Shown piece after piece: positions 1,636-35,175 of a DNA stretch of 35,957 nt (positions are counted from its first letter, which is position 1; every line of letters starts with the position of its first letter). The notes below the pieces were generated by a model that had not been told where the DNA came from, ran no database searches, and saw only the letters and a list, made by a program, of their open reading frames with translations. Position numbers and translations under genes: made by a program. This DNA is from an uncultured Clostridiaceae bacterium (GTDB lineage Bacteria > Bacillota > Clostridia > DUPQ01). The stretch is taken from positions 1 to 35,957 of the forward strand of contig CAYYXJ010000006.1 of assembly GCA_964475455.1 (NCBI GenBank), in the 5' to 3' direction.

Positions 1636-2520
1636 CTATTTTCTTTTTTTCCATACATCAAAATTTCTACCGGTGATTTTTTCAAGTAATTTTGTGTCCT
1701 CTGCTATTATTCCTTTTACATCATCTGATATAGAAATTTCCTTATAATAATCAATAGCCTTGTAATTTCCAATTTTCCTTTTTAATCGACCGGCAATTTT
1801 CTTGATGAATCCCGCTCTCCAATTTCTTTTTCTGATATACGGAAGGCTCTTCACCTTATTGCTTAATTTATCGATGCCAATATGTCTTGAAGCAATTATT
1901 GTTGGATTGGTATTAACATTTAAATCAAAATCAAAATCAGGATCTATTCCCAAAAAGCAGCAAACATCCCTGATTGAGGAAGTCATATCCACAATGAATT
2001 CTTCAAGCACAATAATCTTGATGTTTGCAACAGGAAACCTGTCGATATAATTCTTGATTGCTTCTCCATATAGACTGCTTTTAATATAATTGAACCCATG
2101 CGGGTGCCCATAGATTTCCAGTGACCTGGATTGTCTGTCCTCAATATTCCTATTAAAAGAATCATCCCATGAAAGGTTTTCATGAAGCAGCCTTTTTTCC
2201 ATGAAGTAATGGGATTTTAGTCTTCTAACAGGCTCCCTGACCATAAAAATGAATTTAACATCATCCCCCGACAATGACTCTATCCTCTCAGGTATAGAAT
2301 CATCAACTGCATATGCCGGTGAAAAGTCCACTGCTAAATTGCAGGAATCTTGTATCCCAAGTTTTTTCTTATAAAATTCAATATCCTTTTTATAATCAAG
2401 CAAAAAATAATTAATTTCCTTTGAATATGGCCTGCAAACTTCCGGATGCTGTATAAGTAAGTTGAATAAGGTCGAAGTTCCACATCTTGTAAATCCCGGA
2501 CATATAACATATCTGCTCAT
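1636..2520 (-). CDS. PAPS-type sulfotransferase, second canonical copy
   Basis: 5'-PSB-like CPGFTRCGTSTL and 3'-PB REPVRRLKS. ATGA start/stop overlap with the upstream GT2 gene. Confidence 0.75.
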   Translation of the reverse strand: MSRYVICPGFTRCGTSTLFNLLIQHPEVCRPYSKEINYFLLDYKKDIEFYKKKLGIQDSCNLAVDFSPAYAVDDSIPERIESLSGDDVKFIFMVREPVRRLKSHYFMEKRLLHENLSWDDSFNRNIEDRQSRSLEIYGHPHGFNYIKSSLYGEAIKNYIDRFPVANIKIIVLEEFIVDMTSSIRDVCCFLGIDPDFDFDLNVNTNPTIIASRHIGIDKLSNKVKSLPYIRKRNWRAGFIKKIAGRLKRKIGNYKAIDYYKEISISDDVKGIIAEDTKLLEKITGRNFDVWKKRK

Positions 2521-3557
2521 TTATTTAACCTTGCTTCCTTAAAAACTGAATATAAATGAATCGGCAGTAAAATTACTGGCAATGTAATCCTGTTGAAAAA
2601 ATAAATGGACCGAACAAAAGTCATGGTTCTTTTTTTAATTTTATCTGTGTTTACCTTTCCTGATTCAAGCATGTTTTTTACCATATCAGCCAGAACAAGG
2701 GTTTTCTCAATTCTCTCCCCTAAGGGGATTTTTTCTGTGGAAGTTACTTCCCTGTAACATGAAAAAGCCAGAGCTCTGAATTCCCACTGTTTTATTGCCG
2801 ATTCTATTACTCCTTCAGGCAGCCTGCTTTTTACAAGAACCCTCATTTTTTCATTGACAACCTTCCCTACGGTATCAACTGAATTCGGATCTCTTCTTGA
2901 TGACAGACTTGATGAGTACTTAACATAATTATATAGGGGCAGTCTGATATAACTGACATGGTTGCAATAAAGTAAATATTCCATATTAAAGACAATATCA
3001 CTATTGACTATGGCTTTTTCAGAAAATTCAATTTTATTCCCGGAAATAATTTTTGTCTTATACAACTTGCTCCAGCATGCAGAAAGAATATTATATTCAG
3101 CAAGAAACGCCATCAACTTATCTGAACTGCCCTCTTCATTCAATAATGCCGGTTCAAAATCCTCCAGATATCTCTCCAACCCTTTGTTCCCTGAAATTTC
3201 CTTACAACCGCAAACCGCAAGGTCCGCCCCTTTCGATTCCAAAGTTTCCTTTAATTTCATTAGATAATCAATTTCACACCAATCATCAGCATCAATAAAT
3301 GTGGCATATTCACCGGTCATTTGGGAAATAGCTGAATTCCTGGCTGTACTTACATTGCCGTGTTCCATCTGCAATACAATTATCCTGGAATCCAAATTGC
3401 TGTAGTTTTTCAGGATTCTCACCGAATCATCAGTAGACCCGTCGTCGACTGCTATAACTTCAAATTCCCTGTATGTTTGGTTCAAAAGACTTTCAATACA
3501 TCTCTCCAAATATTTTTCTGCGTTATAGACCGGAAGTATTATACTGATTTTTTTCAT
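2517..3557 (-). CDS. Family 2 glycosyltransferase (GT-A fold)
   Basis: ISIILPVYNAEKYLERCIESLLNQTY, VIAVDDGSTDDS and FIDADD (DxD) motifs. TAATG overlap with the upstream gene. Confidence 0.85.
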   Translation of the reverse strand: MKKISIILPVYNAEKYLERCIESLLNQTYREFEVIAVDDGSTDDSVRILKNYSNLDSRIIVLQMEHGNVSTARNSAISQMTGEYATFIDADDWCEIDYLMKLKETLESKGADLAVCGCKEISGNKGLERYLEDFEPALLNEEGSSDKLMAFLAEYNILSACWSKLYKTKIISGNKIEFSEKAIVNSDIVFNMEYLLYCNHVSYIRLPLYNYVKYSSSLSSRRDPNSVDTVGKVVNEKMRVLVKSRLPEGVIESAIKQWEFRALAFSCYREVTSTEKIPLGERIEKTLVLADMVKNMLESGKVNTDKIKKRTMTFVRSIYFFNRITLPVILLPIHLYSVFKEARLNK

Positions 3558-5899: not shown

Positions 5900-6409
5900 T
5901 TAAGTTGAACTATTATTAATACTTCTTCGAACGCCGATATAAATAGTGAGCAAAATCATAAAATAAGCCAGAACCATCCCAAGGCTGTCAAAAATTATGT
6001 CCTTTAGCTGAAAACCTCTTCCATCAACAAAAATCTGAATGGTCTCATCAGCCATTATAATAATAAAACCGTACAAGAAGGCATAAGCCGGGAAATTTAA
6101 TATTCTTTTAAAAGATTGCAAGGCCCTGCTGACCAGGATATAAAGGACGAAAAATTCAAAAATATGTGCAGCATTTCTTATGTCGTCCACTAAATTGACT
6201 TCTATGTATCTCATCATACGTGTAGGAGTCACATCGCCATAAATGGTCTTGGTAATTTTAATGAATATTTCTACAAAAACTCCTGATTGCTCAAGTGATT
6301 CGGTGGCTGTTTGAAGAGAATTATAAAAAATAAACCCGGTCCAAAGTATCCCGGCCAGTATGAATGCAATATCAATTATTTTATTTAAGCTTTGTTTTTT
6401 CCTTTTCAT
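5900..6409 (-). CDS. VanZ-like family membrane protein
   Basis: Four hydrophobic segments and the VanZ-type block ADETIQIFVDGRGFQLKDIIFDSLG (DE..Q....R......D...G). ATGA overlap with the wzx stop. Confidence 0.65.
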   Translation of the reverse strand: MKRKKQSLNKIIDIAFILAGILWTGFIFYNSLQTATESLEQSGVFVEIFIKITKTIYGDVTPTRMMRYIEVNLVDDIRNAAHIFEFFVLYILVSRALQSFKRILNFPAYAFLYGFIIIMADETIQIFVDGRGFQLKDIIFDSLGMVLAYFMILLTIYIGVRRSINNSST

Positions 6410-7902
6410 TGAAACTCCTTGTTTATTTCCTGATTATAACCAATGCTACCCCTGTTCAGTATGTCCCATTTTTTCTTTAGATATTTAAAATATATTCCAA
6501 AATAAATCAAAAGCCATAACACCCCGAATATAATGGATTCCGCAATCTGTCCCAGCAATAAATCCAATTTAATATATCTCCCCAGCAAAAAGAATATGGC
6601 TCCGAAAGCAATATTGACAACACTGATATAACCCATGCTTTTCCAAGGAAATATCACCTTGAATTCACTTCCGGTTAACCTGACGGTGGCTCCAAGCTGA
6701 AAAAGAGCAAATATTGCGAATGATATCAAAGTTGCTATGGCAGGTCCAACGAACCCTAATAATGAATACAAAGCAAGACTTATTACAATATTCGCACCAA
6801 TTGACAACAATGTACTGTAAAAAATGTATTTTGTTTTTCCCATGGAATTTATAATTATATTAAATGTAGTAACATTCAATATAAGAATTAAACTGTAAAT
6901 TCTGAACACTGTAACACCGGGGAGATATTTGGGTGAATATAATATTGAAATAATCTCAGGGGCATAAACAATCAAAGCTACCGTAAAAAAGCACATGAAT
7001 ATATATGATAATTTTATTGATTCTCCCCATAATTCAATAGCCTTGCCTTTTCTTTTTTCCTTGATCAACAGTATTATCCTTGGAAGTAATGCAGATGCAA
7101 TTGAAATTCCCACAAGATTCAAAGGCAGTTCCCTGGCTGCATTTGTATATATTGCAAGGTTTTCTGTGGAAAAAAATCTACCGATAATAAGTTTGTCTAT
7201 ATTTTTATTAATGCTGCCCAGGGTCGAAGACAAACCAATTGGAATTGAATATTTAAGCATGTTCAACATGAGTTTGGAATTAAAGTTCATTACAAATCCA
7301 CCGGAAACATAGGAGGCGATAAAATATACAATCAATGCGAAAACAGCTTCGATGACAATGAACATTATCATATAAACATAAAAATCAAGCTGCAGTATCA
7401 GGGTAATTGCAACAGCAATAAGAATCAGCAAACTGTGGGATACTTTGTAAAATATCAGCCATGTAGTCTTATTGTAAACAATAAGTATGCTTGTTATTGA
7501 ATTAAATACTGTCCTGGCCCATGGAAACAGCGCAATTATCAGTATAATCTTTCCCAGCATTGGATTTGAAAAATAATTTATAAGAAAAGGCTTCATCACC
7601 AGAATTATTATGCCTGTCAAAACCCCGAGGACTGTCGTGGAAAGCAGATTCATATAAAGAAACTGCCGCTTATCCAGATCAGTGGTTCCCCTTGTGAGAA
7701 AATATGAAATACTCGCAGGGATACCAAGCATTGCAAGGGGAGCAACAATCTCTGCGATTATATAAATCTGTGAATATGTACCGTACTCTCCCAAAGTTCT
7801 GAATCGTGAAAGAAGCATGGCAGAAATCATACCTATCAAAAGGGAACTCATCTGAGAAATTGTCAGTTTAAGGCTGTCTTTACCTATGTTTCCTCTATCC
7901 AT
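6406..7902 (-). CDS. wzx: Wzx-type oligosaccharide flippase (MOP superfamily polysaccharide biosynthesis protein)
   Basis: 498 aa, roughly 12-14 hydrophobic segments and no soluble domain. The N-terminal pattern LLIGMISAMLLSRFRTLGEYGTYS is typical of polysaccharide flippases. Confidence 0.75.
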   Translation of the reverse strand: MDRGNIGKDSLKLTISQMSSLLIGMISAMLLSRFRTLGEYGTYSQIYIIAEIVAPLAMLGIPASISYFLTRGTTDLDKRQFLYMNLLSTTVLGVLTGIIILVMKPFLINYFSNPMLGKIILIIALFPWARTVFNSITSILIVYNKTTWLIFYKVSHSLLILIAVAITLILQLDFYVYMIMFIVIEAVFALIVYFIASYVSGGFVMNFNSKLMLNMLKYSIPIGLSSTLGSINKNIDKLIIGRFFSTENLAIYTNAARELPLNLVGISIASALLPRIILLIKEKRKGKAIELWGESIKLSYIFMCFFTVALIVYAPEIISILYSPKYLPGVTVFRIYSLILILNVTTFNIIINSMGKTKYIFYSTLLSIGANIVISLALYSLLGFVGPAIATLISFAIFALFQLGATVRLTGSEFKVIFPWKSMGYISVVNIAFGAIFFLLGRYIKLDLLLGQIAESIIFGVLWLLIYFGIYFKYLKKKWDILNRGSIGYNQEINKEFQ

Positions 7903-7903
7903 T

Positions 7904-9016
7904 TCAATCCTTCATTCCTATATAAAGCTCTTCAAGCTTACTTGCTTCATTTTTAATATCAAATCCTTTTATTTTCAACTTTTCTAATGCTGAGCATCTC
8001 TCATAGGGAGTTTTCAGTACTTTTTGTATTTCATCCGCCCAATTCCCAGCACTTGATTCCAGTTTTAATATCTTTAATAAGTCTGCAGGATTTGATTCCT
8101 CTGTCAGATTATCTGAAACGATGCATCTAAGACCGGAGGCCTGTGCTTCAATTAAAACCAATGGCAATCCTTCATTAAAAGAGGTAAGGACAAACAAGTC
8201 AAAGACCTGATAAAGGCTGACAACATCATCCCGGCATCCCAAAAAGAGAACCTTGTCCTCAATATTCAGGCTCTTAGCTTTTTCCCTCACGGATTCCATC
8301 AGTCTGCCTTGACCCACGAGAACAAGCTTTGCCTCGGGAACCACTTCCAATAGTCTATTGAATACTTCAATCATAAATCCATGGTTCTTGAAAGGAAGGA
8401 AGTTCCCTACATTTCCCAGCACAACATTATCTTTAAGCCCTAAACTTTTTCTGACTTTTAGACGCTCATCCGGATTGTATTCAAATGCCTCAATATCTAT
8501 GGCATTATTTATCACTGTAACTTTTCCTTTTTCACTTTTCTTTATACCATAAAGGATGTCTCCGGCTATCTTTGAACAGGCAAAATAATGTGTTGATATC
8601 AGATTCAAAAATCCAATGATACTTTTACTAAAAAACTTCAAAACCGGATTATGTGGTAAATAAGAATTGTGACTGTGCGATATCCTGATCTTTGCACCAC
8701 TCAATAAAGCCGTAAAAAGTATTAATACATTTCTGAAATTCATATGACTGTGCACTATTCTATATCTGTTCTTTCTAATTATCTTACTTAATCTAACATA
8801 GAATTTAAAACTATCTGTCAGGGCACCTATCTTGTGAATCTTCCCTCCCAAAGATATTATTTCATCATCAAAAACATCCTGTTCAGATGCTTCTACAGCA
8901 AAATCAAACTGAACTCTGGACCTGTCAATATTCCTGTAATAATTCATAAGCATCACAGGCACTCCACTCCGGTTCATACCCATAAATACATGTAAAACCC
9001 TGATAGGTTCATTCAT
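7904..9016 (-). CDS. Family 4 (GT-B) glycosyltransferase
   Basis: EGLPLVLIEAQASGLRCIVSD block. The start overlaps the upstream stop by 8 nt, with a GGAGG 9 nt upstream. Confidence 0.8.
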   Translation of the reverse strand: MNEPIRVLHVFMGMNRSGVPVMLMNYYRNIDRSRVQFDFAVEASEQDVFDDEIISLGGKIHKIGALTDSFKFYVRLSKIIRKNRYRIVHSHMNFRNVLILFTALLSGAKIRISHSHNSYLPHNPVLKFFSKSIIGFLNLISTHYFACSKIAGDILYGIKKSEKGKVTVINNAIDIEAFEYNPDERLKVRKSLGLKDNVVLGNVGNFLPFKNHGFMIEVFNRLLEVVPEAKLVLVGQGRLMESVREKAKSLNIEDKVLFLGCRDDVVSLYQVFDLFVLTSFNEGLPLVLIEAQASGLRCIVSDNLTEESNPADLLKILKLESSAGNWADEIQKVLKTPYERCSALEKLKIKGFDIKNEASKLEELYIGMKD

Positions 9017-10085
9017 TTACCTGAACCTCCTCGACAAGTTTTGACCAGCTCATGACAACTGTTTTGGAATCATATTTTAACAAAGTTTCATATGCGCTTC
9101 TCCCCAGGTTATTTCGCATAACCGGATTATCTATCATATCCATCATTGCAACCTTCATCTGATCCACATCATTAACCCTGACAATATATGCATTATCATT
9201 ATTTACTATCCCCTCATGCCCAGGTAAATCAGTCGTGATGCATGGCATTCCAATAGCCATAGCTTCCATCAATGCATTGGATTGCCCTTCATAATCTGAG
9301 GATAAAACAAAAGTCTCGCATTCCAGTATTTTTGTATGTATACCATTTACAATTCCGGGCAAAAATACTTTTTCAGAAATACTAAGTCTGTTTATTAAAT
9401 TTTCTAAATCTTTTCTAAGCGGTCCTTCCCCATAAATGTAAAGTCTGTATTCGGGGTATTTTTTTAACAGCTCTGCAAAAGCCTTTATCAGCATGCTTTG
9501 ATTTTTCTGGGGAGCAAGCCTTCCAACATTAACAAATGCTTTTTCAATAACTTCAGGTTTCTTCAAATCATATGGACCTATGGGATTGGGAATCACTATA
9601 CTCTTATCCCTGATTTTGCCGTTGAAAATATTCCTGGCATATTCAGACTGAAATACCACGGCATCTGCCATGGGATATAAAACGCGGGTTGCCATTCGGG
9701 TTAAAAAGCCCCTTCCGTCTCTTTTGGGATCATTTCTTTCAGATACTATGACCGGCAGCCCGGTTATCAGATTTGCCACCAATGCGACAGTATTCACTCT
9801 GGCTATAAATGATATTACAACAGCTTCACTCTTTTTTGATTTTTTGAATTCACGGACCAACGCAATAATCCAGTAAGGAATTTTCAAAAACCTGAACTTG
9901 TCTTTCTTAGACAAATTAACAATTTGTATAGAGCTGTTGATTTCATATTCTTGTTGCCCTGAAAGCAATGTTATTATTTTAACCTTATTGTCGCAGGAAA
10001 AACTATTGGCCAGAATAGAGATGACTCTCTCTCCTCCGCCTTTATCCAACTTTCCTGATATAAATATAATTTCCCTGTTTTTCAT
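9009..10085 (-). CDS. Family 4 (GT-B) glycosyltransferase
   Basis: N-terminal FISGKLDKGGGERV and C-terminal EGQSNALMEAMAIGMPCITTD. Confidence 0.8.
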   Translation of the reverse strand: MKNREIIFISGKLDKGGGERVISILANSFSCDNKVKIITLLSGQQEYEINSSIQIVNLSKKDKFRFLKIPYWIIALVREFKKSKKSEAVVISFIARVNTVALVANLITGLPVIVSERNDPKRDGRGFLTRMATRVLYPMADAVVFQSEYARNIFNGKIRDKSIVIPNPIGPYDLKKPEVIEKAFVNVGRLAPQKNQSMLIKAFAELLKKYPEYRLYIYGEGPLRKDLENLINRLSISEKVFLPGIVNGIHTKILECETFVLSSDYEGQSNALMEAMAIGMPCITTDLPGHEGIVNNDNAYIVRVNDVDQMKVAMMDMIDNPVMRNNLGRSAYETLLKYDSKTVVMSWSKLVEEVQVNE

Positions 10086-10106: not shown

Positions 10107-12293
10107 TCATACCGGCAAAGTGAGCTTTTTTCCCAGTTCCAGGTCATACTCATCCGGGTTCCACTTTTTGATACCGCTGTAATGATGGAAAGTAAGCTCA
10201 CCGAAATAGATTTTTTCATCTATCACATATGCATCAACCCTTATATGTAAAAATGGTTTTGCCAGTTCTCTGACCATATCAACCAATTTATCGTATACTG
10301 CCGGCTTTGTAAGTTCATCTGTATAGGTTCTTCGTCCGTAAACTTTGATTGGATTGAATTCGATGTCAAAAAAATTATTGGTCCTGGCTTCACCCAGATT
10401 GGTTGCCAAAAGTAAAACTTCCGGTTCACCATTAAAGCAGAAGAACTTGTAATTCATGGGATGTCCGTATTTCTCATCTTTCATGAACTTCTCGCATAAA
10501 ATCCTTACTTCCATGTCCTTGTACTGCCACTCACGGTGTTCAAGATAAAAATCTCTTTTCATCCATCGGTCAATCATCCTTTTTAGTTTTTTATGATTAA
10601 TTGTAGTTTTATCTTCACATAAAAAGTAATCACCCGAAGTGTGGTTTGGCTTCAGTACGAATTCATTTGGAAGTTTATCAAAATCTATCTCATCATAACT
10701 ATCATAAATACCAAGCAGGGGGAAGAGGTACTCGTTGCCTAATTTTTGAGAAATATACTCTCTCATCTTATATTTATCAGCCAAATCCCTGTAAATTGGT
10801 TTTCTGTCATTCAATTTAAGCCATTGGATTTTTTCTGTATAACGCATAGGATTTTCCAGGTTGAGTTTTCTTCCCATGGCAAACCTGTAGTCAAGTTGAA
10901 TATATCTTTCATCAGAAAGTTTTCTGCCTATTTTACATCTGATAAAGTAAGTAAAAGGTTTTATCAAATTCTTCCAGTGCTTATGGATGGAAAATACATC
11001 CCCATCACCAGCCAGAAGATAAATAGTCAAAATGATAATCAAACTTTTTAATCTATGTCTCATAGCAGTTCCTGCGGTGAAGGTTCCCTGTGCAAAGAAT
11101 AATACAAACAAGAAAAACTGGATTATAAAAATCGCCAGTAAAAATCTCTTGTCCTTATCAGTTTTTCTATACATAGGAATCAGTGCTACAATAAAAACCA
11201 AATAAAACATTGCATCGATTATAAACGCACCCATATCCTTTATTCCGCGCCAGGCCCATGGTACCGGTGAAAATAAAAAATAGAAAATACGCGGAAAGGA
11301 ATAAATGAATATATCCGCAATACTGTCATACTCCAGATTCTTCAAATATGCCGAGCCACCAAAATCCCTGCCAAGAATCTTATATATACGATTAAGTGCA
11401 TCCTCTTTTAAAACTCCAAGTTTGTCAAAAAATATTCTTGACGAAAAGGCAAATAGCAAAACCAAGATTGCAAACACTGCACCAATTATTATCATGGATT
11501 TCCATGAAATACGCAGTTTCTTGTTTTCCCGGTCATAAAATGCAAATACAAAGAGTACAGCGGGAAGCAGGGCCAACACACCAACATGCATTATCATTGC
11601 CGGCAGAAATAGCGCTAAAGTCCAAATCACATATGTTTTACGCCCTTCTTTAAACCACCTTATAAAGAAGTAAAACATTGAAACCATTAAAAACACAATT
11701 ATCGACTCTCTGATAAGCATTGAAAAAAACGGGAATGACAAAGGGAAAAAACACAATATAAACATGGGGAAAATCATTTTTTTCTCTTCAATCTTCAACA
11801 ATCTTCCAATACCGAGGAAAATTAGCTGGGTTACTGACGCCAGCATTATGTTCAGATATTGAGCCATGAATCTGTTGACCCCGATGGTCTTATATAGATA
11901 CACAAGGAAAATAGGATAGTTTCCTTTTTCATTTTCATTCCATTTCATAGTTCCGTTCAAAATTGACAATGCCCTGTTTTGAAATCCAGTTGAATCTATG
12001 TAATCATTGAAAATAACATATGTTAAATCCATATAAACATCCAAAAAGATGTATGTTAATTTGAATATATATGAAAGCACAAGAAAAACAAGAATTGTTC
12101 TTGTTGTAGTGTTCTTTTTGAACGCATATATTAAAACCGCAGTATGTAATATTATTGAAAAGATATTTAGTATTTCCTGTTTAATGATATTCTTAAATAT
12201 CAGAAATACTACTAAATCAAATAAAAACGCAACTAAAAGCAATGCCAGGGGAAACCATTTTCTATCACTGTACTTCTTTATTGATCTTTTCAT
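10107..12293 (-). CDS. Fusion protein: N-terminal Wzy/GT-C-like polytopic membrane domain (aa 1-~430) plus C-terminal TupA-type ATP-grasp amidoligase domain (aa ~445-728)
   Basis: The N-terminal half has about a dozen hydrophobic segments and one larger loop (KLGVLKEDALNRIYKILGRDFGGSAYLKNLEYDS). The C-terminal half carries TupA-like ATP-grasp blocks: EKIQWLKLNDRKPIY, FVLKPNHTSGD, REWQYKD, NYKFFCFNGEP, IRVDAYVIDEKIYFGELTFHHYSG. It aligns end to end with the stand-alone ORF 34264..35175. Confidence 0.7.
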   Translation of the reverse strand: MKRSIKKYSDRKWFPLALLLVAFLFDLVVFLIFKNIIKQEILNIFSIILHTAVLIYAFKKNTTTRTILVFLVLSYIFKLTYIFLDVYMDLTYVIFNDYIDSTGFQNRALSILNGTMKWNENEKGNYPIFLVYLYKTIGVNRFMAQYLNIMLASVTQLIFLGIGRLLKIEEKKMIFPMFILCFFPLSFPFFSMLIRESIIVFLMVSMFYFFIRWFKEGRKTYVIWTLALFLPAMIMHVGVLALLPAVLFVFAFYDRENKKLRISWKSMIIIGAVFAILVLLFAFSSRIFFDKLGVLKEDALNRIYKILGRDFGGSAYLKNLEYDSIADIFIYSFPRIFYFLFSPVPWAWRGIKDMGAFIIDAMFYLVFIVALIPMYRKTDKDKRFLLAIFIIQFFLFVLFFAQGTFTAGTAMRHRLKSLIIILTIYLLAGDGDVFSIHKHWKNLIKPFTYFIRCKIGRKLSDERYIQLDYRFAMGRKLNLENPMRYTEKIQWLKLNDRKPIYRDLADKYKMREYISQKLGNEYLFPLLGIYDSYDEIDFDKLPNEFVLKPNHTSGDYFLCEDKTTINHKKLKRMIDRWMKRDFYLEHREWQYKDMEVRILCEKFMKDEKYGHPMNYKFFCFNGEPEVLLLATNLGEARTNNFFDIEFNPIKVYGRRTYTDELTKPAVYDKLVDMVRELAKPFLHIRVDAYVIDEKIYFGELTFHHYSGIKKWNPDEYDLELGKKLTLPV

Positions 12294-12431: not shown

Positions 12432-13268
12432 CTATCTTTCAGCTAAATACTCAAAAAACCCACCCTTTGATTTGACTGCCAGATAGTTAGGTGAAGAATT
12501 CCAGAAGTTGAACCTGTCTTTCATTTCAAAATCAATGTATTCTGGATATATTTTCCCTACACGATATTCATCCCCAAGGAATTGTTCAAAATCATTGGGT
12601 GTTATCCCCAGATTAATACCATATTCATTCAACTCAAATTGAATTATGTCTATATTCCCATCCCTGAGCATATTACTGAAACCATTCAAAACCTTCAATT
12701 CGTGGCCTTCTACATCAATTTTAAGAAAATTGATTCTTTTGATGTCATTATTCGCACAAAACGAATCCCCGGTCAACATCGGTACTTTGAATTTTTCATA
12801 AAATTCTTCCTGTGGAAAATCAATTGAGTTACGGGTGTAATTACCCTCCCTGCAATTTACTGCAAAGTCTTTGTTATTGCAATCCGACAAAGCCGAATTA
12901 ATACAATTCACATTGTATTTTTCTGTATTTTTCTGAAGCTCTTGAAAGGTCTGGGGACACATTTCAAAGGAGTATATATTTCCCTGTTTAAATATTTTGG
13001 CTGCCATTACACTCCAATTACCGACATTAGCTCCGACATCAAAAATTGTGTTAAACCTTTCTGATTCTAGTTTACTGAGCTTATCAAGCAGATTCCTCTC
13101 CCCGTTCTTATCCATTTTATAAATGAAGTTACGATATCCCTTCAAATAATTGAAGGCTATCTTATAAAAAAGAGGTTCCTTGTTCCTCTTATACCTGTCC
13201 CGGCTACCTCTTTCTCTTATCCAATCTCCAAGAAAAATTTTTAATCTGCCCGATTTTTTAGAATCCAT
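12432..13268 (-). CDS. FkbM-family SAM-dependent methyltransferase
   Basis: FDVGANVGNWS (SAM motif I) and LKIDVEGHELKVLNG, both typical of FkbM-family methyltransferases. ATG 13268 is preceded by AGGTGAGG with a 5-nt spacer. An alternative GTG at 13277 overlaps the ABC gene stop (GTGA). Confidence 0.75.
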   Translation of the reverse strand: MDSKKSGRLKIFLGDWIRERGSRDRYKRNKEPLFYKIAFNYLKGYRNFIYKMDKNGERNLLDKLSKLESERFNTIFDVGANVGNWSVMAAKIFKQGNIYSFEMCPQTFQELQKNTEKYNVNCINSALSDCNNKDFAVNCREGNYTRNSIDFPQEEFYEKFKVPMLTGDSFCANNDIKRINFLKIDVEGHELKVLNGFSNMLRDGNIDIIQFELNEYGINLGITPNDFEQFLGDEYRVGKIYPEYIDFEMKDRFNFWNSSPNYLAVKSKGGFFEYLAER

Positions 13269-13273
13269 CAGCC

Positions 13274-14998
13274 TCACCTTTTATCTATAATATCTATGGT
13301 TCCGTTATCTTTTACATCAATTATAAAATCCGCATCCGCAACAGTGCTTTGTCTATGGGCTATGACTATAACTGTAACACTGTCTTTCAGAGACTTTATT
13401 GTTTCCATTATACCGCTTTCATTTTTCGCATCCAGGGCACTGGTTGCTTCATCCAAAATCAACATACTTGGCCTGTTAACCAAAGCCCTTGCCAGAGCAA
13501 TCCGCTGCTTCTCTCCACCCGACAACCTAATTCCCTTGTTCCCCATCAATGTATCAAGGCCTTCCGGCAATTTCCGCACAAAATCCAGGGCCTGTGATTT
13601 TTCAAGTGCTTCCATTATGTCTTTGTCTGATGAATCCGGGTTAAACCTGGTTATATTCTCCCTTATACTTTTATTCAGAATAATGGGTTCCTGAGCCATA
13701 TAGCCAATCGACTTTCTCCAGGACCTTACATTGTTGCTGTCCAGTATCCTGGAATCTATGGAAATAGTTCCCTCAACCGGCTTAAGAAGCCCCATGATCA
13801 AATCAACTATGGTACTCTTGCCGACACCTGACCTTCCCTGTATGGCTGTTATTGTTTTTGCTGCGATTGAGAATGATGCGTTTTCAAGTATTTTATCTTC
13901 AGTTCCCTTATATGAGAATGTAACATTGTCAAAAACAATCTCTTTGCCCAGTTCAATATGTTTCTCCTGACCATTCCGGACATCAGACGCATTACCAAGT
14001 GAAACCAATATACTGCTTACATTGTCAAATGAAGGGAGGGCACTGTAAAGATTCTGAACCTGCTTATGGAACTGGGAAAACACCGGCCAAATTCTGGCAA
14101 AAATGTAAACTATCAAAAACAATTCCACCGTATCAACTTTAAGAACAACATTTGCTATATAAAAGATAACTGCAATTAAAACTGTAGAGCTCATCGAAAA
14201 CAACAATGTGGGCAATGAAGACATCCTGGTACGTCTTATATTGGCCGTTTCATATTCATCCAGGACTTCATGGAGTAATTCCTTATGTGAATCCTCAACT
14301 CCGTAGCTTTTAATCTCCTTAATACTATCCAGCTGGTTCTTAATTTCTCCGAGATATCTCCTGTTGGCAACCCGCAGGCTCTCTCCGTTTTTTTTCGCAA
14401 TATCAAAGAACTTCCTGAATGAAAAAAAGAAAAATCCACCTACAAAAATTACAATTGCCGTTAATGGAACATTCAATGCAAAAGCTATTGTCATCTGGGT
14501 AGCAGCTGAAATAATTATTGAGATTAAAACAGGGAAAATAGTTATTGCTATGCTTATCTGCGCTGTTTCATTTGTTAGTGTATTCAGTAAATCCTCATGC
14601 TTCTGGGCAGTCAGTACTTCCCAGTCCGCATCTATGACAGCATCATAAACCTTTAATCTCAATTGCTTGACATATTTTTGTACGAATTTTGTATTATAGA
14701 CTGCCATCCAGCGTGTTACCAATGAGACCAGTAAAATCAGTGAAATATACACAAGCAGCAAAATAATAATCCTGAGTGAATAAGGCATATTTGAGAACAG
14801 TGAAACAGCAAATGAAAATATTCCGATGTCCGTTCCGCTGATGTTAATCACATCAAGCATAGGTATCAGCATGACAACACTGATTCCGTTTGTCAGTGAG
14901 CTTATGACCGACAACAGAATGATGACTATCATTTCCTTTGTGTAATTTTTAAAAGCGCTTTTTACCATTTTGAACATCCGCAGGATACTCCTTATCAT
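13274..14998 (-). CDS. ABC half-transporter, type I exporter (fused 6-TM domain plus NBD; MsbA/PglK-like)
   Basis: Walker A GRSGVGKST, Q-loop MAQEP, signature LSGGEKQRIALARAL, Walker B LILDEATSALD and H-loop VIAHR. The N-terminal half is hydrophobic. An alternative start at ATG 14977 follows an AGGAG. Confidence 0.85.
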   Translation of the reverse strand: MIRSILRMFKMVKSAFKNYTKEMIVIILLSVISSLTNGISVVMLIPMLDVINISGTDIGIFSFAVSLFSNMPYSLRIIILLLVYISLILLVSLVTRWMAVYNTKFVQKYVKQLRLKVYDAVIDADWEVLTAQKHEDLLNTLTNETAQISIAITIFPVLISIIISAATQMTIAFALNVPLTAIVIFVGGFFFFSFRKFFDIAKKNGESLRVANRRYLGEIKNQLDSIKEIKSYGVEDSHKELLHEVLDEYETANIRRTRMSSLPTLLFSMSSTVLIAVIFYIANVVLKVDTVELFLIVYIFARIWPVFSQFHKQVQNLYSALPSFDNVSSILVSLGNASDVRNGQEKHIELGKEIVFDNVTFSYKGTEDKILENASFSIAAKTITAIQGRSGVGKSTIVDLIMGLLKPVEGTISIDSRILDSNNVRSWRKSIGYMAQEPIILNKSIRENITRFNPDSSDKDIMEALEKSQALDFVRKLPEGLDTLMGNKGIRLSGGEKQRIALARALVNRPSMLILDEATSALDAKNESGIMETIKSLKDSVTVIVIAHRQSTVADADFIIDVKDNGTIDIIDKR

Positions 14999-15084: not shown

Positions 15085-16266
15085 TTACCTGCCAATAAAC
15101 ATTTTTATGAGTTTTCTTGCAATCCCATAAAAATCAACTTTTCTTCCAGCAATTTCTTTGTTATATCTTCGTACAAATCCCATGGGAATTTCTTTATTAT
15201 TGAATTCAACACCAAAAATTGCAGCAATGCATTTGCACAAACTAATCTGATTCATCTTGTGGTTAGCAATAATCTGATTTGCAAGATTTCGTTTGTCTTC
15301 GTCGGTCAATAGAATCCTCTGGTCCAGAGCGACATCAGGAAGTGGTTTTTTATTGAATAATTCCCCATCATAACCGAAATATCTCCTGGCAATTTCTCTG
15401 TTCCCCGAATCAAATACCTGTTGATATTCCTTACTCAATAACATACTGACCTGGGGGCTCTCAATGGCGGTATCCACAACCATTCTATTGAGCTGATGCC
15501 TTGCCCTGTAAGCATTGGGATCAGCTAAATTGTAAAGATTTGAATTAATTATCCGCATGAACTCACACTGTTTTACATTGAGTGAAGTATTCAATCTCAC
15601 TTCTTCCATGGAAAACCTGGGAATCCCAATTGTTTTACAAAAATCACTGATAATATCATGCTCATACAAACTGCTTTTATCAAAAATTCTCAGTATGATA
15701 TTCTCTATACCAAAAACATCCTCCCACAATTTAAGTTTTTTATTGAAATCATAAAAATCCGCATTTGCAAAATCTGTAAGCCTGCTTATTACTTTGGCCT
15801 CATTGTTTTTAACTGAAGTTGAATACCTGCTGCAAAGAAGCTCACTTTGTTCCCTGAGATATAAAACAATCTTAACATTTTCGCTCAATCCACTGAGTAA
15901 ATCCTTCAATCTTGCTATTTCCTCGGGGTATTTAAGTGATTGATAGCAGTGCTCATTGGACAAAATGACATTTTTACCATTAAATCCACCTATTTCAGCC
16001 CTAAGAGCCTTATAAAACCTTTTCCTGAATGAAATAATCTGTTTCCTGGTTTCAGTTTTGCATATACTCCTCATTCGGGATGTTCTGTTTTCATTCATTG
16101 CATAGTTAGCTAAATAAATATTATTGGGATTAATCTTCCTTGGTTCTTCAGGAACAAGGAATCCTGCATCATAAAGGCGGCCTGCATTCTTCGCCAAATA
16201 ATATTGGAGAGTTGTTGTTCCGGTCTTCGGACTTCCTATATGCAAATAGATAGTTTCCCTGCTCAT
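15085..16266 (-). CDS. Divergent sulfotransferase-like protein (P-loop core plus conserved C-terminal tail), pair 1 copy b
   Basis: HIGSPKTGTTTLQ (5'-PSB-like) and YLREQSELLCSRY (R-x7-S, 3'-PB-like). Start moved to ATG 16266 (MSRETIYLHIG), preceded by GGAAGGA with a 7-nt spacer. Paralog of 16298..17509. Confidence 0.55.
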   Translation of the reverse strand: MSRETIYLHIGSPKTGTTTLQYYLAKNAGRLYDAGFLVPEEPRKINPNNIYLANYAMNENRTSRMRSICKTETRKQIISFRKRFYKALRAEIGGFNGKNVILSNEHCYQSLKYPEEIARLKDLLSGLSENVKIVLYLREQSELLCSRYSTSVKNNEAKVISRLTDFANADFYDFNKKLKLWEDVFGIENIILRIFDKSSLYEHDIISDFCKTIGIPRFSMEEVRLNTSLNVKQCEFMRIINSNLYNLADPNAYRARHQLNRMVVDTAIESPQVSMLLSKEYQQVFDSGNREIARRYFGYDGELFNKKPLPDVALDQRILLTDEDKRNLANQIIANHKMNQISLCKCIAAIFGVEFNNKEIPMGFVRRYNKEIAGRKVDFYGIARKLIKMFIGR

Positions 16267-16297
16267 ATTCAATTCCTTCCATCGGATTGTTGGAATT

Positions 16298-17509
16298 TTA
16301 CCTTTTGTAAACTTTTTTTATAATTGAAACCAATTTTTTCCGTATTTTTTTCAGAACACGCCTGAAGCCACCCCTTTGGTATCTGCTTACCTTATTCATG
16401 TCAAGTGATTCAATGAATTCCCTGGAAATTAATTCATCATTATACTTAACATTGAAAATAGCTGCTATACATTTACACAAAACTTCGTTACTGTTCCTGT
16501 ATTTATCTATTATTTCTGATGCCATGGTTCTTTTTTCATCTTCCGAGAGAATTTCGCATTGAGAAAGGCTTTTATCAGATAATTTTTTCTTATCAAAGAG
16601 ATCTTTTTCGAAACCAAAATATCTTTGAAACAATTTCACATTCTCCTGCTCATATACGGTTTGGTAATCCTTGTTGATAAGAACCGATAATTCCGGACTG
16701 TCGGGTTTTATACCCTCAACCATGTCAACAAGACCATTTCTGATGACATTGATTCTGTTTTTACTGTAATAAGGGATATATTCATTTATTAAACGCAAAA
16801 ATTCACATTGCGCAGCATTGAGTTTCTCATTCAAATACTGCGGAACAAATCCGACTTTCTCCAAACCTAAAGCCATTGTAAAATCACTGACTATATCATT
16901 GTCAATCATCTTACTCCTGTCAAATATACGCAGAATAATATTCTCAATACCAAAAACCTTTTCCCATAATTTCAACCGCTCGTTATAATTAAATACATCA
17001 TTACCTGCAAATTCATTTATATCCGGCATTTCAAATGTTTTTCCGCCTCTCATCCTTGTAGAATATAAACTGCAAAGCATATCAGCCTGTTCCCTTATGT
17101 AGACAATAATTTTAATATCAACATTCAAATCACTGAACAAATCCTTGAGTTTTTGGATTTCATCCTGTGTTTTAAGGTTTTCGTAGCATTGTTCACTTGA
17201 AAATATAATCTTGGAACCGGTGAAATTCCTTATTTCAGCTGACAGCTTATTTTTAAACTTTTTTCTAAAAACCCTCAACTGTCTTTCGGTGTAAATGCCG
17301 TTTCGGATACTGACTTCAGTTATTGTGGTTTTATTTATACAATAGTTTGCCAAAAGTGTATGATTTGCCAGATATCTGCGGGATGAAGCAGGTACAAGAC
17401 ATCCCTTTTTGCTTAGCAAATCACTGTTTGAGGCCAAATAATTTTGTATGGAAGTAGTTCCTGTCTTAGGTGTTCCTATATGTATATATATTGTTTTTTT
17501 CTGTGTCAT
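16298..17509 (-). CDS. Divergent sulfotransferase-like protein, pair 1 copy a
   Basis: HIGTPKTGTTSIQ and YIREQADMLCSLY. Shares LKLWE(K/D)VFGIENIILRIFD and CKCIAAIF blocks with 15085..16266. Confidence 0.55.
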   Translation of the reverse strand: MTQKKTIYIHIGTPKTGTTSIQNYLASNSDLLSKKGCLVPASSRRYLANHTLLANYCINKTTITEVSIRNGIYTERQLRVFRKKFKNKLSAEIRNFTGSKIIFSSEQCYENLKTQDEIQKLKDLFSDLNVDIKIIVYIREQADMLCSLYSTRMRGGKTFEMPDINEFAGNDVFNYNERLKLWEKVFGIENIILRIFDRSKMIDNDIVSDFTMALGLEKVGFVPQYLNEKLNAAQCEFLRLINEYIPYYSKNRINVIRNGLVDMVEGIKPDSPELSVLINKDYQTVYEQENVKLFQRYFGFEKDLFDKKKLSDKSLSQCEILSEDEKRTMASEIIDKYRNSNEVLCKCIAAIFNVKYNDELISREFIESLDMNKVSRYQRGGFRRVLKKIRKKLVSIIKKVYKR

Positions 17510-19765: not shown

Positions 19766-21406
19766 TTATCTTATTTTCAATGCTTCATTAATATAGTTTT
19801 CAAGCTTAACTAATATTTGAAGTCCATCACTTTCTTCAAGGTCATTCATCTTTTTTTTAACAAAATCATGCATGCATGATTTTATGCTGTCATTGGACTT
19901 ATTAAAAGCTTCAATAAACATTTTACTATATTCTTCATCATATTTTATCATTGGGTTTTCATCGTCTTTATAATTCAACGGATATTTGATGCCGAAGGTC
20001 AGCCCAAGCCACAACAAATCAAATAAAGAAAGCTTTACAACCATTCTCATGCGCTTGCCTGACATTGAATATTTATTCCCCGGAATTTGGGTTATTGCAT
20101 CTATATCCCCGTTGTATCTTCTGTCATTCAATTTGCCGCCAAAAATCAAAGGTTGTTCTTTATTAATGAATTCAATGATCTCAATGGCCTGTGAAGAGAC
20201 ACTTTTGTTGATTCTTGGTATTTCAAGCTCACACAGCTCCCCCGTTGGTATTCCAAGTTTCATAATAAAATAGCCGACGGGACCGAACTCATGGGTCAAT
20301 GTTTCCTCAAATTTATAAACCGATATGCATTTTTTCCCAAATATCATAATCGCCCTTATCAGTCTTCGGAAATAAATATTGGAATAGACCATCAAAAGCC
20401 TTTTTTTGCTGAAAGAATCACCCATTCTAACTGCTTGCTGATAACCGGATGAAGCATAACCAGGAATTGAACGCACACAGTAAAGTATGTCGATTTTGGC
20501 ATCCGGCATAAGAGTTTTTATGAGCTTTTTAAAAACCTTAAGTTCATTGAAATGAAACCCGCATATACCTTCGCCATAGAAAATATAAGTTTCCCGGCGG
20601 CATTCTTTTACCCCTTTGCACAATGCAGAAAGATTCCTCATATTATACCGGGCAACTTCATCCTTATCATGTCCGGACACAACATGCCAGTAGATTTTAT
20701 CCGGTTTCTTATGAACCAGGCTCTTAAGCGGAACAGAATGATTGTCCGAACCCCAATTTGTCCTGTATTCATGTGAATTTTTATTAAGCCATTCCCTGTT
20801 GCGTGATAAAAATACCTGTATTGAAGTGGATGCGGTTTTGTCCATTCCCATTTGAACAACAACTTTTTTGATACCGGAATTTGAATAATGTTTCATGAAG
20901 TTTAAGATCCATGTCTTTTTTTTCGATTTTATCCTTTCAAGTGAATCGTTCGGTTGATTATTATCTAAACCGAGAAAATAATTGCTTATTCTGTGAAAAA
21001 TCTCCAGCTCATCCCCATTGGTTGTGTTTTGAATTTTTTCAAGGATAAATTCATGGAAAACACCTTTTAAAAAGTCATTCAGTTTGTCATAGGCTCTGGT
21101 GCAATCATTGTAATACACTTCATCATAAACAGGTTTTAAATCCTCCGCTTCCCATGTATTGGCTGTATAATCTATACCAAAATTGTTCTTTAGCCAGAGG
21201 ATGTCAGGCTTTGCCCTTTCAATTATTTTTTCATTGATATCATCAGAAAGCCTGAATCTGACACCCGTAATTTCCTTCAAAGGGAATATATCCTTAAGTT
21301 GTCTATACTTGTTTCTAATTCCTTTGTTAATTGCAGGATACTTTTCATTGATATATTCCATTATTTCAATGGCATTTTTCGATAATGCTGTATTTTCCCT
21401 GTGCAT
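19766..21406 (-). CDS. Divergent sulfotransferase-like protein, pair 2; the ORF is [tail of upstream paralog] + [core] + [tail]
   Basis: The core has QMGMDKTASTSIQ and YCVRSIPGYASSGYQ. The first ~185 aa (SKNAIEIMEYINEKYP...DILWLKNNFGIDY...) repeat the ORF's own C-terminal tail (SSQAIEIIEFINKEQP...DLLWLGLTFGIKY...). No Shine-Dalgarno precedes ATG 21406. Confidence 0.5.
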   Translation of the reverse strand: MHRENTALSKNAIEIMEYINEKYPAINKGIRNKYRQLKDIFPLKEITGVRFRLSDDINEKIIERAKPDILWLKNNFGIDYTANTWEAEDLKPVYDEVYYNDCTRAYDKLNDFLKGVFHEFILEKIQNTTNGDELEIFHRISNYFLGLDNNQPNDSLERIKSKKKTWILNFMKHYSNSGIKKVVVQMGMDKTASTSIQVFLSRNREWLNKNSHEYRTNWGSDNHSVPLKSLVHKKPDKIYWHVVSGHDKDEVARYNMRNLSALCKGVKECRRETYIFYGEGICGFHFNELKVFKKLIKTLMPDAKIDILYCVRSIPGYASSGYQQAVRMGDSFSKKRLLMVYSNIYFRRLIRAIMIFGKKCISVYKFEETLTHEFGPVGYFIMKLGIPTGELCELEIPRINKSVSSQAIEIIEFINKEQPLIFGGKLNDRRYNGDIDAITQIPGNKYSMSGKRMRMVVKLSLFDLLWLGLTFGIKYPLNYKDDENPMIKYDEEYSKMFIEAFNKSNDSIKSCMHDFVKKKMNDLEESDGLQILVKLENYINEALKIR

Positions 21407-22239: not shown

Positions 22240-22269
22240 ATTTAAAACACCCCTCCATAAATCATGTTT

Positions 22270-22278
22270 ATTATAGCA
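22270..22278 (-). promoter_or_regulatory. Extended -10 element TGCTATAAT, candidate primary promoter of the glycan operon
   Basis: The reverse strand reads catatGCTATAATaaacatg, followed about 14 nt later by GGAGGGG (22256-22250) and the in-frame TTG at 22239. Confidence 0.45.
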
Positions 22279-22369
22279 TATGAAATGAGCCTGTTTTCTC
22301 CCGGGTAAGCCTGAATAATCTGATTTAGCAGAACAGACACACAGCCTCCGGGGAAATAACATGTTTGGG

Positions 22370-22398
22370 TTACACAAATTCCCATCAGATGATAATAT
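22370..22398 (+). promoter_or_regulatory. Sigma-A-like promoter TTACAC-17-TAATAT for the sortase module
   Basis: Exact 17-nt spacer. Lies about 27 nt upstream of ATG 22425, with the RBS AAGGGGGA in between. Confidence 0.45.
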
Positions 22399-22424
22399 AT
22401 TAGTCAAAGGGGGATTCATTCTGA

Positions 22425-34263: not shown

Positions 34264-35175
34264 CTAATTATGTGTCTTTGGTTTAATTATATCAGCCGAC
34301 TCAATGGTTGCGGGTAGTTTTAGCATTCCTCCGAGAATATAGTTGTAATCCGGAGGCTCCCAGTTTATTAATCCACTGGCACCATGCTGAGTGAACTCAC
34401 CGACAAAAGTTTTACCCTCTATTAAATACATGTCCATACGAATAAAGTTAAATGGCTTGGATAATTCACTCACAATCCTCACCAATTCGTCAAACCCCTC
34501 CGGCTTATCCAGTTTTTCAATCAGTCGGTATTTCTCATGTGCCCGGACTGGATTTAGTTCCATATCAAAAAAACTATAGTTCTTTCGGCCTTCGGTTGCA
34601 AATGACACAAAGAAAATAAATGGTTTGCCTTCAAAGCACATGAACTTGTAGTTAAGAGGCAGTCCGTAGTCCTTGTCCTCCATGTATTTTTCACAAAGAA
34701 GCTTCCTCTTTATGCCCTTGTACTGCCACTCCCTGTGCTCAAAATAGTAGTCATATCTCATCCATTGCCGAATTGTCTTTTTCAACTCCCTATGGTTAAT
34801 ATTATTTTTATCTTCGCAAAAGAAAATATCACCTGAACTGTGATTGGGCTTTAGTACAAACTTATCAGGCAGGCTTTCAAAATCGATGTCTTCATATCTG
34901 TCATAAACCCCCAGAAGCGGGAACATGTACCCATCCCCTATTTTTTCTGCTACATAGTTCCTGACCAATAATTTATCTGCGATGATTCTATAAATTGGGT
35001 TTCTGTCATGAAGCTTGAGCCACTGGAGTTTTTCGCTGTAGGTTTTTGGATTCCTTAAATCAGGCCAGGTTTTGAATATCCTCCTGTAATCCAGTGAAAT
35101 ATATATTCTGTCGGGTATCAATCGCCCGAGCCCATATCGCAAGAACCTGCCCCAGAAAGATTTTCCGTGTGTCAT
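34264..35175 (-). CDS. TupA-type ATP-grasp fold amidoligase (stand-alone)
   Basis: EKLQWLKLHDRNPIY, FVLKPNHSSGD, REWQYKG, NYKFMCFEGKP, IRMDMYLIEGKTFVGEFTQHGASG. Roughly 55-60 percent identical by eye to the C-terminal domain of 10107..12293. RBS GGCGGAG. Confidence 0.8.
   Translation of the reverse strand: MTHGKSFWGRFLRYGLGRLIPDRIYISLDYRRIFKTWPDLRNPKTYSEKLQWLKLHDRNPIYRIIADKLLVRNYVAEKIGDGYMFPLLGVYDRYEDIDFESLPDKFVLKPNHSSGDIFFCEDKNNINHRELKKTIRQWMRYDYYFEHREWQYKGIKRKLLCEKYMEDKDYGLPLNYKFMCFEGKPFIFFVSFATEGRKNYSFFDMELNPVRAHEKYRLIEKLDKPEGFDELVRIVSELSKPFNFIRMDMYLIEGKTFVGEFTQHGASGLINWEPPDYNYILGGMLKLPATIESADIIKPKTHN

Follow-up and report, generated by a model that had tools for sequence, protein, structure and literature searches.

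The window analysed here is a stretch of 35,957 nucleotides from an uncultured Clostridiaceae bacterium (GenBank assembly GCA_964475455.1, contig CAYYXJ010000006.1, positions 1 to 35,957). It carries a polysaccharide locus in which one gene encodes both a polytopic membrane domain (hereafter the N-domain) and a TupA-type ATP-grasp domain (the C-domain). An earlier reading, made from the DNA letters and the translated open reading frames (ORFs) and called here the sequence-only reading, had proposed a Wzy-like domain fused to an amidoligase. We found that the fusion is a genuine, single conserved gene. Judged by its sequence, the C-domain is a TupA-type ATP-grasp domain with its conserved residue set intact, and the N-domain is, on its structural model, a glycosyltransferase of the GT-C fold. 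A role of the N-domain as a Wzy-type polymerase of repeat units is plausible, not proven; sequence comparisons and models put it at somewhat better than even. The features of the gene, together with a stand-alone relative of its C-domain, are as follows:

10107..12293, minus strand: the whole fusion ORF, 728 residues plus stop, with an ATG start and uninterrupted.
10995..12293, minus strand: N-terminal domain, residues 1-433, with 12 predicted transmembrane (TM) helices and a GT-C fold (hydropathy, AlphaFold, Foldseek).
11994..11996, minus strand: D100, a conserved Asp in the first long, predicted external loop (at least 90% in 145 sequences; hhalign).
11706..11711, minus strand: R195-E196 (in 'LIRES'), at the predicted external end of a TM helix (family conservation, hhalign).
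11586..11588, minus strand: H236, an invariant His (family conservation, hhalign).
11046..11060, minus strand: basic motif R412-H413-R414-L-K416, at the predicted external start of TM12, a possible site of phosphate or diphosphate binding (conservation in 101 and 145 sequences).
10947..10994, minus strand: short linker, predicted cytoplasmic, which is the junction (residues 434-449), between TM12 and the ATP-grasp homology.
10110..10946, minus strand: putative TupA-like ATP-grasp amidoligase domain, residues 450-728 (PF14305, paralogue, Cj1438C homology).
10122..10835, minus strand: PF14305 match within the C-domain, residues 487-724 (Pfam).
34264..35175, minus strand: stand-alone TupA-like ATP-grasp paralogue, 303 residues (PF14305, E 6.7e-46).

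The uninterrupted frame of 728 residues is as the sequence-only reading had given it. The dozen or so hydrophobic segments it had counted agree with the 12 TM helices that hydropathy and the AlphaFold helices place within residues 14-428, but where it had seen one larger loop there are two large external ones (residues 86-140 and 284-350). A Pfam scan of the full ORF finds a single domain, ATPgrasp_TupA.

The single ORF might be an assembly or sequencing artefact that merged adjacent genes, and the sequence-only reading had itself named a junction hiding a stop as the case against it. A search with residues 1-450, however, recovered the same architecture (728-745 residues with a C-terminal PF14305 domain) in P0002 (58% identity over the N-domain; JGI, two metagenomes), P0004 (55% identity in the N-domain search; ENA) and P0008 (41% identity over the full length; ENA and Logan), and a scan of one genome per species found the fusion in a locus of a Bacillota metagenome-assembled genome as well (L007). 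The database search for this architecture that the sequence-only reading had suggested is thus positive. Six independent contigs from different projects share the junction at 41-61% identity, the assemblies coming separately from JGI, ENA and NCBI, and the junction DNA (residues 430-460, window 10914-11006) contains no homopolymer run. The GC content of the two halves is alike (33.4% vs 35.6%). The artefact would be favoured by the homologue at L004:1263-3307, where two ORFs (522 and 156 residues) are called in place of one; but the break falls inside the ATP-grasp domain, about 70 residues past the junction, which is thus conserved in this locus as well. This split gene is either a pseudogene or a Logan assembly error. 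Since several separate assemblies share this junction along with the gene order, an artefact is effectively excluded, and we give a merger of two genes almost no probability.

The architecture is rare: the best 150 representatives of the N-domain family hold two intact ATP-grasp fusions (P0004 and P0008), the split gene P0003 and two fusions to a Wzz domain. As far as seen, the ATP-grasp fusion is confined to uncultured Bacillota with sulfotransferase-rich loci. Within this group P0008 stands somewhat apart. Its linker is 24 residues longer than that of the window protein, and its fused ATP-grasp domain (L005:3485-4384) is 36-39% identical to those of the window protein, P0002 and P0004, while the N-domains of P0008 and the window protein are ~46% identical and stand-alone paralogues (window 34264-35175 and L005:5256-6176) share 48-52% identity with the window C-domain. 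Judging from these identities, the P0008 domain may have arisen by paralogue swapping or replacement, by a second fusion event or by faster divergence.

The C-domain matches PF14305 (ATPgrasp_TupA) over profile positions 1-240 of 241 (E 2.7e-51); the score of 174.9 bits, against a cut-off of 25, bears out the profile assignment expected by the sequence-only reading. BLASTP aligns residues 450-728 without gaps to residues 11-289 of the stand-alone paralogue (49% identity, E 5e-105). Ten TupA-like sequences drawn from the window and related loci have K548, E588-W589, E601, K616, R685, D687, E699 and T701 invariant (window-protein numbering), with K548 in VLKPNH, E588-W589 in REW, D687 in RVD and E699/T701 in GELT, and the window protein has them all. 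The proposed alignment of this half with the stand-alone ORF, with all TupA blocks present, therefore stands, and the presence of the invariant Lys, Glu and Asp residues contradicts the case, also raised from the letters alone, that catalytic residues are missing. We take this invariant set to be the usual phosphate-binding lysines and metal-binding acidic residues of ATP-grasp enzymes. The full-length AlphaFold model is poor in the C-domain because the alignment is shallow; Foldseek still matches it to LysX, Ddl, RimK and biotin carboxylase, and a PDB sequence search found no relative of it.

The closest known counterpart is Cj1438 from the HS:2 capsule locus of Campylobacter jejuni NCTC 11168, which also combines a chain-building enzyme with a TupA-like amidoligase: its ATP-grasp part is fused to a polymerising GT2 glycosyltransferase (PMC11800379). 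The sequence-only reading held TupA-like proteins to be normally stand-alone. Stand-alone proteins of about 300 residues are indeed known, but Cj1438 had been overlooked. The window C-domain is 32% identical to Cj1438C (BLASTP, E 1e-37; sequence from the supplement of PMC11800397) and shares the motifs VLK(P/T)NH, REWxYKD, YKF and VRVDxY...GELTF with it, but is without the 35-residue insert of Cj1438. Cj1438C uses ATP to join the C6 carboxylate of glucuronate by an amide bond to serinol phosphate or ethanolamine phosphate, and it acts after the sugar has joined the chain, not on UDP-GlcA (PMC11800397). The partners differ: that of Cj1438 is a soluble cytoplasmic GT2 in an ABC-transporter-dependent capsule pathway, whereas in the window it is a 12-TM GT-C protein in a Wzx locus. 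Both Cj1438 reactions take place on the same side of the membrane, whereas those of the window fusion would be on opposite sides, as its N-domain site is predicted to be external. The Cj1438 locus also encodes a UDP-glucose dehydrogenase (Cj1441), and none was found in the window. TupA of Bacillus halodurans and WemR of Proteus mirabilis are in the same Pfam family and are soluble proteins of ~300 residues; the window fusion, by comparison, appends nearly the whole of such a sequence (from about residue 11) in frame to a membrane enzyme. Stand-alone TupA-like proteins are found in cell-surface polysaccharide loci and are predicted to make decorations of the amino-acid type (PMC13419641).

The N-domain family has no Pfam or NCBIfam model. 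Word-indexed homologue searches gave almost nothing past the first seven sequences, and an exhaustive search of representatives was used: it gave 6351 at E<=1e-3 and 926 at E<=1e-30, nearly all of them stand-alone proteins of 400-450 residues. The family thus comprises no fewer than 6351 clusters (50% identity), spread across Bacillota, Bacteroidota and Pseudomonadota. PDB sequence searches with profiles of the family found nothing, and in plasmids the N-domain matched, by tblastn, a single hypothetical protein, and that only in part. Residues P184, E196, H236, P343, G408, R412, H413 and R414 are invariant in both a 101-member and a 145-member alignment; R78, D85, D100, R195, W213, R349, D353 and K416 are at least 90% conserved (some of them invariant in the 101-member alignment). 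The window protein has K at position 78, which is mostly Arg in the family.

Such conservation bears on the possibility that the N-domain is mainly a membrane anchor or scaffold for the ATP-grasp domain, its own catalysis being lost or irrelevant in the fusions. The very short linker, which puts the ATP-grasp domain at the membrane, and the rarity of the fusion (two ATP-grasp-fused proteins plus split P0003 among the best 150) would suit an anchor. However, the fused proteins keep P184, R195, E196, H236, P343, G408, R412, H413, R414, K416, D85 and D100, their sole change (K at the mostly-Arg position 78) is conservative, and their N-domains are 41-58% identical over the full length. We consider the anchor explanation improbable.

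The assignment to the GT-C fold comes from a domain-only AlphaFold model (pLDDT 91.8, pTM 0.92) and from matches of the relatives. The top 19 Foldseek matches in PDB are all GT-C proteins (ALG3, STT3, PIG-M, PIG-U, Pmt4, PglB, ArnT, AftB and EmbC), with probabilities of 0.5-1.0 (>=0.9 for 15 of the 19), TM-scores of 0.32-0.50 and E-values of 0.014-0.7; RodA has a probability of only 0.30 and WaaL is not among the PDB matches. A Foldseek search of viral structures was uninformative for this domain. The 101 family members were also scanned singly (E limit 0.01): 26 match NF047440, a putative glycosyltransferase (best E 7.9e-8), 12 match PMT_2 (best E 2.2e-8), 11 match PMT (best E 3.2e-7), four match EpsG (E 1e-3 to 1e-2, best 1.3e-3, all below its cut-off) and one matches TIGR04370 (E 9.3e-6). 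Only about one false match is expected in the whole scan, so the concentration of matches on GT-C families is meaningful. The window protein has the overall fold of the GT-C class A enzymes (ArnT/PMT_2, PMT, STT3/PglB, ALG3 and PIG-M), including an acidic residue in the first external loop, but is without a soluble external domain, and its RHRxK cluster is not mappable onto those enzymes. The genomic context of the family is different too: Wzx repeat-unit loci, and not the modification of lipid A, proteins or N-glycans.

The same matches raise another explanation, in which the N-domain would be a GT-C side-chain transferase with an undecaprenyl-phosphate-sugar donor (of the ArnT, PMT_2 or three-component type), or a ligase or oligosaccharyltransferase, with no change to the role of the ATP-grasp domain as a cytoplasmic amidoligase. 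The closest structures either use lipid-phosphate-sugar donors or are oligosaccharyltransferases (ALG3, PIG-M, Pmt4, ArnT, STT3 and PglB), and the poor RodA score and the absence of WaaL from the Foldseek matches point the same way. So do the better E-values of the relatives for PMT_2 and PMT than for EpsG, and the annotation by JGI of one family member as an ArnT-like glycosyltransferase, the sole useful cluster name.

Evidence for a repeat-unit polymerase, and against a side-chain transferase, comes from other fusions, from gene content and from motif order. Two relatives of the N-domain, P0047 (679 residues, L006:3373-5412) and P0139 (516 residues), have a C-terminal Wzz/CpsC chain-length-determinant domain (Pfam Wzz 2.3e-10; TIGR01006 2.5e-34). 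In 38 related loci from named genomes we counted 38 other polytopic proteins within 10 kb: 20 are assigned to Polysacc_synt (Wzx-type), six to Acyl_transf_3, two to Wzy_C and none to EpsG or O-ag_pol_Wzy. In Wzx loci with a member of the family, the N-domain is therefore usually the sole polymerase candidate, and most of these loci offer the side-chain explanation no other protein to polymerise the chain. The genes immediately surrounding N-domain genes (two to either side, n=139) include 47 GT4, 15 GT2, seven pyruvyl transferases, seven Wzx, five Asn_synthase-type amidotransferases, five ATPgrasp_ST (PF14397) and five Bac_transf proteins. GtrA, a marker of three-component side-chain glycosylation, is outside the 25 most frequent neighbour families (35 loci), which speaks against that type of pathway. 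The Asn_synthase and ATPgrasp_ST genes, which loci among L007-L044 have beside unfused N-domain genes, suggest that the family is recurrently associated with carboxylate-modifying enzymes; one such neighbour (L034:604-2538) begins with 'MCGF'. A TupA gene of the stand-alone kind occurs less than 10 kb from an unfused N-domain gene in L011, L023 and, twice, L013, and L005 has the fusion and a stand-alone TupA gene, both inside its polysaccharide locus. Next to another unfused N-domain gene, in Holtiella tumoricola, the gene directly downstream (L019:11133-13289) encodes a 718-residue protein with a Polysacc_synt flippase and a C-terminal P-loop ATPase (AAA_31/ParA/MipZ-type).

The motifs were compared with those of EpsG-type Wzy proteins. 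Wzy polymerases of families GT122-124 make up the CAZy clan GT-C3, which has a conserved set of two Arg, one Asp and one His and a long loop near the N-terminus, and Wzy of E. coli O104 is listed as GT122 (Meitil et al. 2024; PMC10920833). In Pfam terms the O104 protein belongs to EpsG (E 9.6e-44). A four-sequence EpsG profile that includes it has R51, D57 (DVGxDY), R142-Q143 (IRQ), H176 (FHxSA) and R292 invariant, and hhalign aligns the N-domain family with this profile over 152 columns (probability 58.5%, E 9.6e-5) in a register in which, at that probability, D100 pairs with D57, R195-E196 with R142-Q143 and H236 with H176. The two families are alike in being polytopic proteins of Wzx-dependent loci with an Asp inside the long loop near the N-terminus, an Arg followed by Glu or Gln and, 35-40 residues further on, an 'FH' His, all in the same order and with similar spacing; this tentative agreement with an EpsG-type Wzy register is a further point against a side-chain transferase. 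The window N-domain exceeds the EpsG proteins in length by ~70 residues and carries an additional RHRxK motif, C-terminal and invariant, as well as a WRG motif.

The polysaccharide locus of the window occupies the minus strand between the left contig end and ~22419. By increasing coordinate it begins with a GHMP sugar kinase, which the end of the contig truncates, followed by two sulfotransferases, a GT2, two GT4 and VanZ, and continues with Wzx, two GT4, the fusion, an FkbM methyltransferase, an ABC exporter, two 'GxPKTGTT' paralogues, two GT4 and two further paralogues. The genes nearest to the fusion are:

6406..7902, minus strand: Wzx-type flippase, 498 residues (Polysacc_synt_3, Polysacc_synt, MurJ).
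7904..10085, minus strand: a pair of GT4 glycosyltransferases (9009-10085 and 7904-9016) that follow the fusion directly on its downstream side (Pfam).
12432..13277, minus strand: FkbM-family methyltransferase directly upstream of the fusion (Pfam).
13274..14998, minus strand: fused ABC exporter (ABC_membrane + ABC_tran) in the same operon (Pfam).

Much of this order is kept in the other fused loci. Wzx synteny is found in L001, L003, L004, L005 and L007; the same two GT4 genes follow the fusion in L001 and L003 and are further downstream, beside Wzx, in L004; and every locus that is long enough has the fusion followed by GT4 genes and Wzx. FkbM is directly upstream in L002, L004 and L007 as well, with a GT4 gene in its place in L005. 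The ABC exporter and the Wzx flippase would be two different translocators of lipid-linked glycans in one locus; the ABC_membrane + ABC_tran layout is that of the MsbA and PglK exporters.

Within the window we found no second polytopic protein as a candidate polymerase. The four ORFs of the locus without a Pfam match (15085-16272, 16298-17509, 19766-21406 and 21418-22419) have 0-1 hydrophobic segments and are thereby ruled out as alternative polymerases; two of them carry 'GxPKTGTT' with a weak Sulfotransfer_3 likeness. Since no unassigned ORF is polytopic, the window offers no polymerase-like candidate but the fusion, as the sequence-only reading had stated for this locus with its Wzx flippase. 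The window's only GT2 (2517-3557) has no hydrophobic segment by hydropathy count. GtrB/DPM1-type synthases of polyprenyl-phosphate-sugars are membrane-anchored, and the lack of such a segment in this GT2 argues against the side-chain explanation.

Two clear sulfotransferases are encoded at 744-2520 on the minus strand, and sulfotransferases are also found in L004 and L005; from these assignments the product of the locus may be a heavily sulfated polysaccharide, something unusual for a Gram-positive anaerobe. Of the two paralogous pairs, the proteins of 15085-16272 and 16298-17509 start with 'IGxPKTGTT' (Sulfotransfer_3 at E 0.035-0.23), and those of 19766-21406 and 21418-22419 (minus strand) carry 'GMDKTASTS'. 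The stand-alone TupA gene of the window is 22 kb from the polysaccharide operon, with a sortase and unrelated genes between; its neighbours, also on the minus strand, are a gene for a URO-D-like protein (33088-34242) and a 188-residue ORF without a Pfam match (35264-35830). Also outside the polysaccharide locus, two adjacent minus-strand genes (27812-28930 and 28961-30223) encode hemerythrin + PAS_10 paralogues, one of them with DUF438.

Several observations weigh against a Wzy-type pathway or against the assignment of the N-domain to it. The window protein is below the curated threshold of every Wzy, EpsG and PMT_2 model: with residues 1-450, Pfam at permissive thresholds (E<=10) gives only DUF6057 (E 1.3) and a spurious Sec61beta match, Wzy_C (PF04932) and O-ag_pol_Wzy (PF14296) have no match at E<=10 and none among 101 relatives, EpsG (PF14897, cut-off 30.1 bits) has no match, and TIGR04370 (oligosaccharide repeat unit polymerase) reaches 17.8 bits (E 0.0013) against a curated cut-off of 40. 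The link to EpsG, at 58.5% over 152 columns, drops to 6.7% against the O104 Wzy sequence alone, and the relatives match PMT_2 and PMT both more often and more strongly than EpsG. The Foldseek E-values (0.014-0.7) are weak and go with TM-scores of 0.32-0.50, and the family is known from sequences and models alone. The P0002 lineage has, two genes upstream, a 411-residue polytopic protein without a Pfam match (L007:7776-9011, L002:24-587), unrelated to the N-domain or EpsG, which may be a second polymerase or a ligase in that lineage; as a possible polymerase it would also suit the side-chain explanation. The window has no homologue of it, and the ABC exporter is at that position. Among the window ORFs there is no Bac_transf, Glycos_transf_4 or Wzz match (the operon runs off the left contig end), and a UDP-sugar 6-dehydrogenase homologue is found neither in the window nor in any fused locus, though it is present in nine unfused loci. 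With a chain-length regulator, a priming phosphoglycosyltransferase and a UDP-sugar 6-dehydrogenase all unseen in the window, the pathway type and the carboxylate substrate are therefore not fixed. The addition of an amino acid onto a uronic acid, suggested in the sequence-only reading, has no support from the locus: beside the failure to find such a dehydrogenase, the short-chain dehydrogenase/reductase (SDR) gene at 25837-26829, considered as a UDP-glucuronate epimerase, is a dTDP-glucose 4,6-dehydratase (RmlB).

The epithet 'Wzy-like' is thus partly justified: it is favoured by the GT-C fold, the EpsG register at 58.5%, the Wzz fusions and the Wzx loci, but no Wzy, EpsG or PMT_2 model matches at threshold. 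On balance, the best joint explanation, which we favour by a small margin over even chances, is a Wzx-dependent heteropolysaccharide locus of a low-GC member of the Bacillota, with many GT4 and sulfotransferase genes and a methyltransferase gene, in which the N-domain is a polymerase of repeat units and the C-domain a cytoplasmic amidoligase. A side-chain transferase or ligase with the same amidoligase is a less probable alternative, to which we give something under a third of the weight.

The predicted topology is N-terminus in, 12 TM helices and C-terminus in, with the ATP-grasp domain in the cytoplasm. Lys and Arg account for 28 of 79 residues in the predicted inside loops and for 16 of 146 in the outside loops (helix borders from the model), in keeping with the earlier statement that an ATP-grasp domain must face the cytoplasm. 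The conserved residues D85, D100, R195-E196, H236, R349 and R412-H413-R414-K416 are all on the predicted external face, the side on which the GT-C polymerase families also have theirs. As only ~16 residues separate the end of TM12 from the start of the stand-alone homology, the ligase would be held against the inner face of the membrane. The sequence-only reading had the fusion couple polymerisation to amidation; with the two active sites on opposite membrane faces, no substrate channelling or catalytic coupling between them would be possible.

Under the favoured explanation of a polymerase joined to an amidoligase, the C-domain would activate a carboxylate, at the expense of ATP, to an acyl-phosphate and then make the amide on the lipid-linked repeat unit, in the way that Cj1438C acts on glucuronate. 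Because the ATP-grasp domain is predicted to be cytoplasmic and the conserved residues of the N-domain external, this amidation would occur on the lipid-linked intermediate before flipping, and polymerisation afterwards on the other side, an order of steps that we infer. Wzx would flip the amidated lipid-linked units across the membrane, and the N-domain would then polymerise the undecaprenyl-diphosphate-linked units on the external face, its basic RHRxK motif perhaps binding the diphosphate. The fusion would tether the modifying enzyme at the site of assembly in the membrane, in 1:1 stoichiometry with the polymerase. A stronger version, which we think unlikely though worth stating, is that the protein is an integrated unit, with a polymerase of an unclassified class and a GT-C class A-like fold, into whose product only amidated units are efficiently incorporated.

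Both superfamilies are already known, as is the fusion of a TupA-like ATP-grasp domain to a chain-building enzyme (Cj1438), and the general picture of either enzyme class is unchanged. Our literature searches found no paper describing a fusion of a Wzy-type or GT-C membrane enzyme with an ATP-grasp domain. What is probably new is that the partner of the ATP-grasp domain is a GT-C enzyme of the membrane whose active site is predicted to be external; new as well is that this partner comes from a very large family with no curated model.

For that family, the ATP-grasp and Wzz fusions serve as Rosetta-stone evidence, connecting a very large set of unannotated membrane proteins with the assembly of surface polysaccharides and offering a testable name for thousands of hypothetical proteins. 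The C-terminal domain, which requires ATP, fixes the topology of the membrane domain and would force amidation to take place at the cytoplasmic face on a lipid-linked intermediate, and so makes a concrete statement on the timing of glycan decoration in a Wzx-dependent pathway. It also provides a natural handle, in a single polypeptide, on the coordination of cytoplasmic decoration with external polymerisation. If the integrated-unit version were true, the rare TupA and Wzz fusions would reveal a physically integrated transmembrane assembly unit, whose cytoplasmic domain marks the lipid-linked units or supplies them for polymerisation outside the cell by the very same polypeptide.

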